Source: Escherichia phage 308Ecol101PP. From it: 64,000 nucleotides of DNA. The stretch lies in sequence record OR062945.1. One strand, written 5' to 3'. The translations under genes were made by a program, and so were the position numbers. Of this stretch, positions 6,103 to 8,218 are shown piece after piece. The stretch's first letter is position 1; each line of letters opens with the position of its first letter. The notes under the pieces were generated by a model, which saw only the letters and a program-made list of their open reading frames with translations, was not told where the DNA came from and did not search any database.

Positions 6103-6618
6103 ATGAATATTTGTTTAGGCAGTACAATTCCTAAGGGTTACGTAATTGATGTCACTACTTGGGAAAATGACGGCGACAACTATAAAACCAAAACATTATT
6201 TGGTGTAGAAGAGCATGAGCTCCAACAGTTTAAATATCTCTTAAAGAAATTTAAGAGCCGTCATTCCAGCACTAAAGCTGAACGTTACTGTGGTAATACA
6301 CTATTCAGTGATTGTTCGCTTTTAATCTATGAATACTTGGTTGAAGGACTGTTCTCAGACCAGCTTTATCCAGAATTCATTAAAAAGGTCTTTGGTATCG
6401 AAGTTGACCTTGGTGACAAATCCGAAGAAGATGAAACACGTGTATTCGACCTATTCTTTGAGAGCGGAGATGAGATATCTCAAGGACTTATTGATATTCT
6501 TGGCTATGCTTCCGAATACTATGATTACGATTTCTTGCGTGTAGTTGAACGTGTTGAATTCGCTTATATTGAAGAAGAAATTGTTTTGCCGACTGTTAAA
6601 ATGATTGATTTGCTTTAA
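6103..6618 (+). CDS. Hypothetical acidic protein
   Basis: SD GGTGAG before ATG; 171 aa. Confidence 0.65.
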   Translation: MNICLGSTIPKGYVIDVTTWENDGDNYKTKTLFGVEEHELQQFKYLLKKFKSRHSSTKAERYCGNTLFSDCSLLIYEYLVEGLFSDQLYPEFIKKVFGIEVDLGDKSEEDETRVFDLFFESGDEISQGLIDILGYASEYYDYDFLRVVERVEFAYIEEEIVLPTVKMIDLL

Positions 6619-6697
6619 GAATTATGTGTTATTATTAATTCATACCCTCTATTACCAAAGGTGCTCTAAAGTGCCTTTCATAATAGAAAGTTATTAA

Positions 6698-6772
6698 GGC
6701 CCTGTAGCTCAATGGGAGAGCTGTCAGCTCATAACTGATAGGTAGCTGGATCGAAACCAGCCAGGGTCACCA
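6698..6772 (+). tRNA. tRNA-Met (anticodon CAT; could be Ile2 if lysidinylated)
   Basis: Hand-folded cloverleaf: acceptor GGCCCTG/CAGGGTC, D stem GCTC/GAGC, anticodon stem GTCAG/CTGAT with loop CTCATAA, T arm GCTGG-ATCGAAA-CCAGC, encoded CCA. Confidence 0.8.
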
Positions 6773-6775
6773 ATT

Positions 6776-6852
<77 letters not shown>

Positions 6853-6870
6853 ACTTCAAGTGAGGAAAAT

Positions 6871-7215
6871 ATGAAAGGCAATATTTATTTGGTAGTTCAT
6901 GATTTAACGTTTTATTTTAACGAACAGGATACAGTTATTTCCGACCGGTTGATTAATTCGTTATATCAACACGCTGATTACGTTTATTTTCAAAATGAAT
7001 TCGGACATTGGAAGTTTCTTAAAAACCGTTCCGGGTTAACTAGTTTTGAATACTTTGACCGTAAAGACCTTTTAAACGAAATTCCATTACAACATCGGTT
7101 CCAGAAACGCGAATCACTATACTATTGTCGCCATATACCAAATGCTGAATGTGTTTATGAAGCGATTAATCTATGGCGTAGACGTAGAGAGCAAATTGAT
7201 GATATGCCAAAATAA
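6871..7215 (+). CDS. Hypothetical protein
   Basis: ATG 6871 after SD GAGGA; the ORF-track start at 6823 would lie inside tRNA-Arg. Confidence 0.55.
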   Translation: MKGNIYLVVHDLTFYFNEQDTVISDRLINSLYQHADYVYFQNEFGHWKFLKNRSGLTSFEYFDRKDLLNEIPLQHRFQKRESLYYCRHIPNAECVYEAINLWRRRREQIDDMPK

Positions 7216-7518
7216 GAAGCCGGGTCGCTACCGGCAAGTCGTCGGACTGATGTTCCCTGAGTAAGGACTGGTCTTAATAAATCTTTATGATTTGTTAATA
7301 TCCCCTTACATCACAGCAGAAACGGCGCAAAGAATTATCGATTCGAGGAAATATCTTTGCCGTAAGCCGAGTAGCGTTTTTGACGGAACGTTCGGATATG
7401 GTCGAGATATGGCCTTTTAAAAATATTGAGTAGCGTCAACTGCTTAATAACCGGGTTCGAATCCCGGCGTTTCGTACAAACACTTGCCTTAGTAGGTGGA
7501 AACCCCGACAAGGTATAT
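7216..7518 (+). ncRNA. Candidate structured stable RNA(s) with tRNA-like 3' T-arm (non-coding gap downstream of tRNAs)
   Basis: 300 nt without ORF, relatively GC-rich; contains CCGGGTTCGAATCCCGG T-arm-like hairpin (7451-7467) and local hairpins; bounded by terminator 7520; T4 has stable RNAs in its tRNA cluster. Confidence 0.3.
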
Positions 7519-7519
7519 A

Positions 7520-7547
7520 GCCCCTTCCGAAAGGTTGGGGCTTTTTT
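7520..7547 (+). terminator. Rho-independent terminator
   Basis: GCCCC-TTCCGAAAGGTT-GGGGC followed by TTTTTT. Confidence 0.7.
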
Positions 7548-7548
7548 G

Positions 7549-7556
7549 TATAAATA
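7549..7556 (+). promoter_or_regulatory. Late promoter motif TATAAATA upstream of CTS-protein gene 7592
   Basis: Exact 8-mer immediately after terminator 7520. Confidence 0.4.
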
Positions 7557-7591
7557 TAGTAAACAATAAACCTACTTTCTAAGGACCATCA

Positions 7592-8218
7592 ATGTATACT
7601 TTTAATGAATTTTTAGCCGAAACGGAAGTAATCACCGAAGCCGGTGTACGTATGACAAAAGAGAAATGGCAAGCTGCTTACGATGCTATTTCTGGTACAA
7701 AAACTAGTACAGAGTTTTTCAAAAACGTTCAAGCCATGTATGGTATCGACACTTCCAGCCAAAAAGAATATTACAGAGCTTCTAAAGCATTCAAAGATAT
7801 TGTTAGTGGCGGTGTTTCTGCTAAATCGGGTTCGCCTAAAGTAAAACCTGCTCCTACCGTTCCTAAACCTGCGACCCCTAAAGCAATAGCAAAACCTGAG
7901 CCTAAGCCGGAAGTAAAAGCAACTCCTAAAGCTCCTGCTCTTAAGTTTGATACTTCTAGCCTGGAAAAAAAATATAAACAACTATCTTCGCTTGTTCGTG
8001 ATATTGAATCCGATACATCTTCACTCGTTCGTGAATTCAACAGTCTTCGTAATGGCCAACATATCAACAACCTTGATACCCCAGACCTTTATCGTCTTTA
8101 TTTGACTATTGAAGGTTTGAAGTACACTCAACCACTTCATGATGAGATTAAAGAAAAACTTCGTCAGGCAGGTCGTTTGGCTGCTGACGCTGCTCAGTAT
8201 GCAAAAACTCGTAAGTAA
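7592..8218 (+). CDS. Capsid-targeted protein with Pro/Lys-rich linker
   Basis: Starts MYTFNEFLAETEV (CTS-like); PKVKPAPTVPKPATPKAIAKPEPKPEVKATPKAP low-complexity linker; TATAAATA late-promoter motif at 7549. Confidence 0.7.
   Translation: MYTFNEFLAETEVITEAGVRMTKEKWQAAYDAISGTKTSTEFFKNVQAMYGIDTSSQKEYYRASKAFKDIVSGGVSAKSGSPKVKPAPTVPKPATPKAIAKPEPKPEVKATPKAPALKFDTSSLEKKYKQLSSLVRDIESDTSSLVREFNSLRNGQHINNLDTPDLYRLYLTIEGLKYTQPLHDEIKEKLRQAGRLAADAAQYAKTRK

Follow-up and report, generated by a model that had tools for sequence, protein, structure and literature searches.

Orthologues of the T4 small stable RNAs rnaD and rnaC in Escherichia phage 308Ecol101PP, and a tRNA-like model of rnaC with a putative kissing loop

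The window analyzed here is a stretch of 64,000 nucleotides of Escherichia phage 308Ecol101PP (sequence record OR062945.1). On its + strand, tRNA-Met (6698–6772) and tRNA-Arg (6776–6852), both identified by ARAGORN and Rfam, are followed by an ORF of 114 amino acids (6871–7215, + strand; phrog_3355) and then by the segment 7216–7518, which is the arrangement given in a preliminary description of this DNA. That description called the segment ORF-free, GC-enriched and structured, and all three statements hold. The segment contains no ORF of 60 amino acids or more; the frames inside it (42, 47, and 58 amino acids) are mechanical and start with TTG only. Its GC content is 44.9%, versus a window mean of 37.1% (303-nt windows, standard deviation 2.8%), which places it at the 99.7th percentile. 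The predicted fold of 7210–7550 beats dinucleotide shuffles with z = −5.6. The individual motifs were also found as listed: CCGG-GTCGCTA-CCGG at 7220–7234 (extended by a G7219–C7235 pair), CCGGG-TTCGAAT-CCCGG at 7451–7467, CGGAACG at 7384–7390, and, near 7520, a terminator consisting of a GC-rich hairpin followed by T6 (7519–7547).

Neither ARAGORN nor Rfam reports anything significant inside 7216–7518. The Infernal/Rfam scan that had been proposed for the segment was run at gathering and at permissive thresholds and matched no covariance-model family, and no Rfam family for rnaC or rnaD was found in it. Sub-threshold matches (tRNA-Sec, NsiR1, isrK, and others; 14–17.5 bits) are at chance level. 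The flanking ORFs have no Pfam match and belong in PHROGs to families of unknown function only.

rnaD and rnaC are small stable RNAs of phage T4 that have been known since the 1970s and are among the oldest known phage non-coding RNAs. By sequence homology, the segment encodes orthologues of both. In BLAST searches, 7216–7550 matches 806 phage records, 679 of which cover at least 80% of the stretch, whereas of the 1334 records that match the wider region 6600–7700, just 154 cover it to that extent. The flanks thus vary, and the segment between them is a conserved module. The wider region is about 98–99% identical to that of several T4-type phages of the HX01/JS09 kind (Mosigvirus). The matched region is annotated in the RB7 record as 'rnaD, species II RNA' and 'rnaC', and in the T4 record as 'rnaC, small, stable RNA; species 1 RNA', directly 3′ of tRNA-Arg. 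In a three-way alignment (A1), the stretch is 89–92% identical to T4 and RB7. Over the covariance-model match (7337–7480), the rnaC part has the same sequence as RB7 rnaC (100% identity), and two positions in about 144 nt distinguish it from T4.

The RNA ends in the window are transferred from the T4/RB7 annotation. The rnaD orthologue (T4 species 2 RNA) spans about 7212–7332 on the + strand, with ends set by homology to RB7 rnaD (L001 1497–1617) and T4; the rnaC orthologue (T4 species 1 RNA) spans about 7338–7476 on the + strand, with ends known to ±2 nt. The spacer between them, AAUUA (5 nt), is conserved in A1. The order rnaD, rnaC, hairpin, terminator is that of T4 and RB7, on the + strand like the tRNAs. 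The rnaC of T4 lies likewise on the same strand as its tRNAs, at the end of the cluster, with a hairpin and a terminator after it, and nothing substantive differs in rnaC itself. In rnaD, the 5′ hairpin and the base of the rod hardly vary, and the window has an apical region of the T4/RB7 type. Taken separately, rnaC, rnaD, and the 3′ hairpin with terminator have z values of −3.6, −3.3, and −2.8 relative to shuffles. The analogy with the small stable RNAs of the T4 tRNA cluster that the preliminary description had raised thus extends to orthology with exactly those RNAs, as BLAST shows. Its proposal of one stable RNA with a tRNA-like 3′ end stands for the tRNA-like end, where both the T arm and the acceptor-like stem covary, but not for the single RNA, as the segment comprises rnaD, rnaC, and a 3′ hairpin. 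The option of a degenerate element is not sustained, given the strong structural selection seen in about 11 genera.

GenBank phages, IMG/VR, and metagenomes were searched for homologues of rnaC with BLAST and with motif patterns in which the loops were unconstrained; a covariance model made for this analysis (R1) served to confirm the finds. R1 scores the window rnaC at 161 bits (E = 1e-46). The set comprises 29 distinct homologues and covers about 11 genera of phages: Tequatrovirus, Mosigvirus, Gaprivervirus, Karamvirus, Moonvirus, Kanagawavirus, Gelderlandvirus, Tegunavirus, Kagamiyamavirus, Marfavirus, and unclassified relatives. The consensus comprises 48 pairs and was assessed on the first 19 distinct sequences. 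Of their cells, 94.2% are paired, versus 38–47% with slid partners. Compensatory changes on both sides of a pair occur in 29 of the 48 pairs, and the observed values are reached in 0 of 500 column shuffles. The minimum-free-energy (MFE) structure of the window rnaC alone equals the comparative model. Supported by the 29 homologues, rnaC is predicted to be a tRNA-like four-way junction.

The ends of rnaC form an acceptor-like stem of 7 bp (7339–7345, CGAUUCG, with 7468–7474, CGUUUCG; + strand) that consists of five Watson–Crick pairs and two U·U mismatches and is backed by covariation. Position 3 is G–C in 19 and A–U in 10 of the 29 sequences, with no exception, and the two U·U mismatches are present in 27 of 29 and become U–A and C–G in Tegunavirus. 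The T arm (CCGGG-UUCGAAU-CCCGG, 7451–7467, + strand), in which two of five pairs show compensatory changes and 98.9% of cells are paired, runs directly into the acceptor 3′ strand, as it does in tRNA. Covariation thereby bears out the T-arm-like hairpin and acceptor-like strand that had been noticed from the letters. The acceptor 3′ strand and tail (U-ACA-A) occupy 7468–7479 (+ strand); the encoded tail is UACA here, not NCCA, and reads UCA in Tegunavirus and CCA in Marfavirus. In Kanagawavirus of the CIP9 type (L003, L081, L135), the T loop is UGCAUGC instead of UUCGAAU in an otherwise conserved rnaC. Those phages thus do without a canonical T loop, and tRNA-type tertiary contacts are not universal.

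The acceptor pairing proposed earlier, between CGGAACG (7384–7390) and the strand after the T arm, had to be corrected: the partner of 7468–7474 is the 5′ end of rnaC, 7339–7345. The rejected pairing is possible in this sequence and is 81% paired overall, but it has zero compensatory changes in 29 sequences, is mismatched in divergent lineages, and overlaps a covarying helix; forcing it costs 13.3 kcal/mol (−36.9 versus −50.2). The idea of a G3·U70 alanine identity element, which came from the wrong pairing, is rejected with it, as the true acceptor pair 3:70 is A–U or G–C.

Between the acceptor-like stem and the T arm lie two arms that take the positions of the D arm and the anticodon arm. 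At the D-arm position is a long, interrupted arm of 70 nt (7346–7415, + strand), with a junction helix (AGG 7346–7348/CCU 7413–7415), a middle helix (7352–7370/7392–7409), and an apical helix (7374–7379/7386–7391), the two helices above the junction helix showing compensatory changes in 19 of 22 pairs. The sequence of the arm is mostly different, with the same pairing, in Gelderlandvirus, Karamvirus (EnC15), Kanagawavirus (PEi20, 305), and Marfavirus. A single-stranded U/A-rich linker, UUUAAAAA (7416–7423, + strand), whose AAAAAU is nearly invariant in alignments A5 and A7, leads to the arm at the anticodon position (7424–7449, + strand), which has a 10-bp stem with compensatory changes in 7 of 10 pairs and a 6-nt loop, CGUCAA. 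A single unpaired A separates this arm from the T arm. The earlier remark that no canonical D or anticodon arm could be folded agrees with this model, in which the 70-nt arm and the 10-bp arm occupy those positions.

The loops of the two inner arms are complementary to each other. UUGACG at the apex of the long arm (7380–7385, + strand) is the exact complement of CGUCAA in the loop of the 10-bp arm (7434–7439, + strand), and the two hexamers are perfectly complementary in 29 of 29 sequences: UUGACG/CGUCAA in 23, UUGAUG/CAUCAA in 2 (Tegunavirus), and UUGGCG/CGCCAA in 4 (Marfavirus-type). The six-pair loop–loop helix thus contains two independent double substitutions. Covariation of the complementary apical hexamers in two separate lineages indicates a kissing loop between the long arm and the 10-bp arm, on the strength of only two independent covariation events. 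The covariation fits pairing within one molecule as well as pairing between two. The patterns used for IMG/VR and metagenomes left both loop hexamers unconstrained. A first, looser IMG/VR pattern gave 120 loci, mostly chance matches, and was discarded; the corrected patterns together with the metagenome scan returned just T4-like and Marfavirus-like copies plus four chance matches in GC-rich DNA, and no third variant of the kissing loop. TTGACG could also be read as a −35 promoter box, but this reading was rejected, since the box is lost in TTGATG and TTGGCG, the variants that covary. The literature searched does not mention the loop–loop contact, and this may be the first description of a kissing-loop architecture in rnaC.

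rnaC shares with canonical tRNA an end-formed 7-bp stem that adjoins a 5-bp T stem with the loop UUCGAAU (UUCRANY), a four-way junction, a place inside tRNA clusters, and, in most sequences, a U before the first base of the first stem. Unlike canonical tRNA, it has no D arm, an anticodon-position arm of 10 bp whose 6-nt loop is paired elsewhere, two U·U mismatches in the acceptor, no encoded CCA, and a length of 139 nt. A canonical tRNA (RF00005) was accordingly rejected for 7216–7518: ARAGORN makes no call there, no match reaches threshold, and there is neither a D arm nor a 5-bp anticodon stem with a free 7-nt loop. The best match within the tRNA clan is tRNA-Sec at 7383–7475 (16.6 bits; threshold 47; E = 3.6). 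A tmRNA was likewise rejected (no ARAGORN call, no Rfam tmRNA match, and no tag ORF), as was YrlA (RF02553), whose sole match (16.2 bits; threshold 69) lies on the real tRNAs at 6739–6803, with none at rnaC. Elsewhere, ARAGORN reports a 'tRNA-Phe (gaa)' of 96 nt within the rnaC homologue of Cronobacter phage Pet-CM3-4 (L005 747–842), and GenBank has a 'tRNA-Phe' over the rnaC homologue of Enterobacter phage KKP_3262 (H210). Both calls are very likely false and built on the alternative acceptor pairing.

tRNA-like domains serve as processing or binding handles in several other RNAs, including the tRNA-like domain of tmRNA, the Y RNA-like YrlA, the mascRNA of MALAT1, and the t-elements of plant mitochondria. 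These embody the same idea as rnaC, that is, a mimic of the acceptor/T arm that recruits tRNA enzymes and is joined to a non-tRNA body, but no sequence or covariance-model similarity between them and rnaC was found. To our knowledge, none of them has a kissing loop between two inner arms.

Among the fetched loci, rnaD occurs only upstream of rnaC in genomes of the Tequatrovirus, Mosigvirus, and Gaprivervirus type; in the other genera, a tRNA gene or an ORF precedes rnaC. In Moonvirus, Karamvirus, Gelderlandvirus, Kagamiyamavirus, and Erwinia phage COW86c, the rnaC homologue lies between two tRNA genes with spacers of a few nucleotides. Many GenBank records place 'hypothetical protein' CDSs over rnaC or rnaD homologues, e.g., that of Klebsiella phage F48 (L137 716–853). 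These CDSs are probably spurious, because the region covaries.

The predicted fold of rnaD begins with a 5′ hairpin, GCCGG-GUCGCUA-CCGGC (7219–7235, + strand; 5 bp, 7-nt loop), whose closing pair covaries from G–C to A–U (AU in 6, GC in 4, and GU in 1 sequence of alignment A6). The hairpin is followed by a long irregular rod (7238–7329, + strand), also a predicted fold, with a conserved base (GUCGUCG.../...CGGCGCA). Compensatory changes are found in 9 of the 31 predicted rnaD pairs. The apical part (about 7262–7306) exists in at least three unrelated sequence types (T4/RB7/window, BW-1/L091, and L124), each of which folds as a hairpin. The 3′ end of T4 rnaD is GCGCACCA, versus GCGCAAAG in the window; the CCA at the T4 rnaD end is not conserved among phages, which have CCA, CCG, CAG, or CCT, and AAG here. 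Near this end, GAAACG (7317–7322) is complementary to CGUUUC (7468–7473) in the acceptor 3′ strand of rnaC. The MFE structure of the whole region pairs the two, and the unprocessed precursor may therefore fold unlike the mature RNAs.

In T4 and RB7, rnaD begins 1–2 nt after tRNA-Arg with no ORF between them, but in the window the ORF 6871–7215 separates the two, and its stop codon TAA (7213–7215) falls within the homology-mapped 5′ end of rnaD. The rnaD 5′ end is thus not made by 3′ processing of tRNA-Arg as in T4, and its position in the window is uncertain because the ORF, and not tRNA-Arg, is immediately upstream. The ORF affects the 5′ processing of rnaD and not its homology. An ORF also ends immediately upstream of rnaD in L090, L091, L131, L132, L136, and phage BW-1, with a different C-terminal sequence in L090, L091, L136, and BW-1; given these differing ORFs, the junction looks like an insertion hot spot.

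Genetic evidence on rnaD comes from phage BW-1, in which the only mutation common to three lines adapted to the semi-permissive strain E. coli ECOR34 is in rnaD, a T-to-C change at 164264, with an increase of the virulence index (RBG) from 0.17 to 0.98 (PMC12685909). The SNP was placed at 'about position 41, 3′ end of rnaD' (PMC12685909). On the RNA strand it is an A-to-G change (L169:372), at about nt 74 of about 118 in transcript orientation. In our own mapping onto the predicted fold, the change converts CACAG-UUUUA-CUAUG to CACAG-UUUUA-CUGUG (L169 360–374) and repairs a C·A mismatch in the apical hairpin of rnaD. This stretch is homologous to the apical part of rnaD in the window (about 7270–7300), and the repaired version of the hairpin occurs naturally in contig L091. 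The mutation points to a host-dependent function of the rnaD/rnaC module.

Downstream of rnaC, an irregular hairpin is predicted at 7485–7515 (+ strand). It is conserved and is kept in all T4-type loci in which rnaC is last in the cluster, and it is absent where a tRNA follows rnaC. It is probably a 3′-processing site; its T4 equivalent is presumably an RNase III site. An intrinsic terminator, AGCCCC-UU-CC-GAAA-GG-UU-GGGGCU followed by U6 (7519–7547, + strand; predicted fold), is conserved in T4 and RB7. A simple terminator scan missed it because its stem has an internal loop of U·U/U·U. In T4 and RB7, 9 nt that form a GCC-GCAA-GGC hairpin lie between the processing hairpin and the terminator, whereas the window is without them (7514–7519; A1 columns 316–324). 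No late-promoter motif TATAAATA was found upstream of rnaD. The nearest T4 late-promoter-like TATAAATA is at 7549–7556 (+ strand), just past the terminator and with 36 nt between it and the next ORF (7592–8218; phrog_2280), and the count of the motif in the whole window is not above chance.

The T4 RNAs accumulate as discrete species, rnaC having about 140 nt on a northern blot (PMC9697503). Papers of 2010, 2022, and 2025 still call the function of RNAC and RNAD unknown. An acceptor/T-arm minihelix is enough for RNase P and other enzymes that process tRNA ends to recognize an RNA. In the mechanism proposed here, the acceptor/T minihelix of rnaC would allow the tRNA enzymes of the host to release it from a polycistronic tRNA transcript, with RNase P acting at the 5′ end and endo- and exonucleases acting at the 3′ end, and would also make the RNA stable. 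Where rnaC is last in the cluster, as in the window, its 3′ side would be opened at the hairpin 7485–7515. The mature RNA would then present the acceptor/T face of a tRNA, with the D-arm and anticodon-arm positions replaced and their loops kissing. Because no anticodon-like loop would be free, rnaC should be incapable of decoding; a tRNA face of this kind makes binding of a tRNA-recognizing factor its most likely role, and rnaC would most likely be a tRNA mimic that binds such a factor of host or phage in a host-dependent manner. With high confidence, the best explanation of the whole locus is that it carries orthologues of rnaD and rnaC, a probable processing hairpin, and the terminator of the tRNA transcription unit; in it, rnaC has a tRNA-like fold with a putative kissing loop, would be excised, and is most likely a tRNA mimic. 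Weighing against this explanation are RNA ends taken over from T4 and RB7, the ORF upstream of rnaD, the two U·U mismatches of the acceptor, the UACA tail, and the non-canonical T loop of some Kanagawaviruses; moreover, T4 deletions that remove the tRNA region are viable on laboratory hosts. A more specific proposal is speculative and, as formulated, rather unlikely: rnaC, as a kissing-loop-closed tRNA mimic with its anticodon position hidden, might act, maybe together with rnaD, as a decoy or inhibitor of a host tRNA-directed factor that sets growth on E. coli strains. Under that reading, the target may be a defence nuclease or a tRNA-modifying or repair enzyme.

The structures could instead act only in cis, as a 3′ module that protects or processes the tRNA-cluster transcript, with the excised RNAs being by-products that are inactive in trans. 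In T4-type phages, the module does close the tRNA unit on its 3′ side, with only a processing hairpin and the terminator behind it, and recognition of an acceptor/T minihelix by tRNA-processing enzymes is established knowledge. However, at least five lineages have rnaC between two tRNAs and not at the end of the cluster, and 3′ protection would call for neither a conserved arm of 70 nt, nor one of 10 bp, nor kissing loops that covary. The discrete accumulation of the T4 RNAs (PMC9697503) also speaks against a purely cis-acting role, which is thus improbable.

A reading of rnaC as a tRNA pseudogene in decay, or as a tRNA carrying an unusually long insertion, with rnaD as spacer, would fit the weak tRNA-Sec match at 7383–7475, the ARAGORN 'tRNA-Phe' in Pet-CM3-4, and the tRNA-Phe annotation in KKP_3262. 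Those calls, however, use the alternative acceptor pairing, which lacks covariation and is 13.3 kcal/mol worse; a score of 16.6 bits is far under the Rfam tRNA threshold of 29 bits, and a D arm and a 7-nt anticodon loop are absent. Moreover, the non-tRNA arms are under compensatory selection in the 29 sequences, which is not expected of a pseudogene and makes this account very improbable. Least credible, with next to no probability, is that the segment encodes small proteins. Its mechanical ORFs of 42–58 amino acids and the 'hypothetical protein' annotations in some records would be the grounds for it, but every one of the ORFs starts with TTG, the variation consists of paired compensatory substitutions and indels of 1–2 nt, and the long arm is swapped for other sequence with the same pairing. 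In addition, the curators of T4 and RB7 annotate ncRNAs, and T4 RNAC is seen on northern blots (PMC9697503).

The window itself thus holds no new element: rnaD and rnaC are already known, and a corrected and extended structure is what the analysis adds. The addition is a testable model of rnaC, comprising a tRNA-like junction, a corrected acceptor pairing, and a covarying loop–loop contact; the conservation of rnaC far outside T4, across about 11 genera and often with tRNA genes on both sides; and a structural reading of the published BW-1 mutation in rnaD as base-pair repair. What rnaC and rnaD do is a question 50 years old, and the structural model makes its testing easier. Mis-annotation of the region in GenBank is also exposed, with hypothetical proteins in many records and tRNA-Phe in one.

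Two neighboring regions in related phages have structure of their own. In Klebsiella phage F48 (L137, about 633–698), the place that rnaD takes in T4-type phages is filled by a tRNA–rnaC spacer of about 65 nt with a strong GGGGUGG...CCCACCCC stem, and this spacer may be an unrelated small structured RNA. Downstream of rnaC in Enterobacter phage CIP9 (L003, about 860–960), tRNA-like motifs (GGTAGA... and a CCCTGG-TTGGTA-CCCAGG hairpin) are present in a region for which ARAGORN gives no call, and which may be another structured RNA or a degenerate tRNA.
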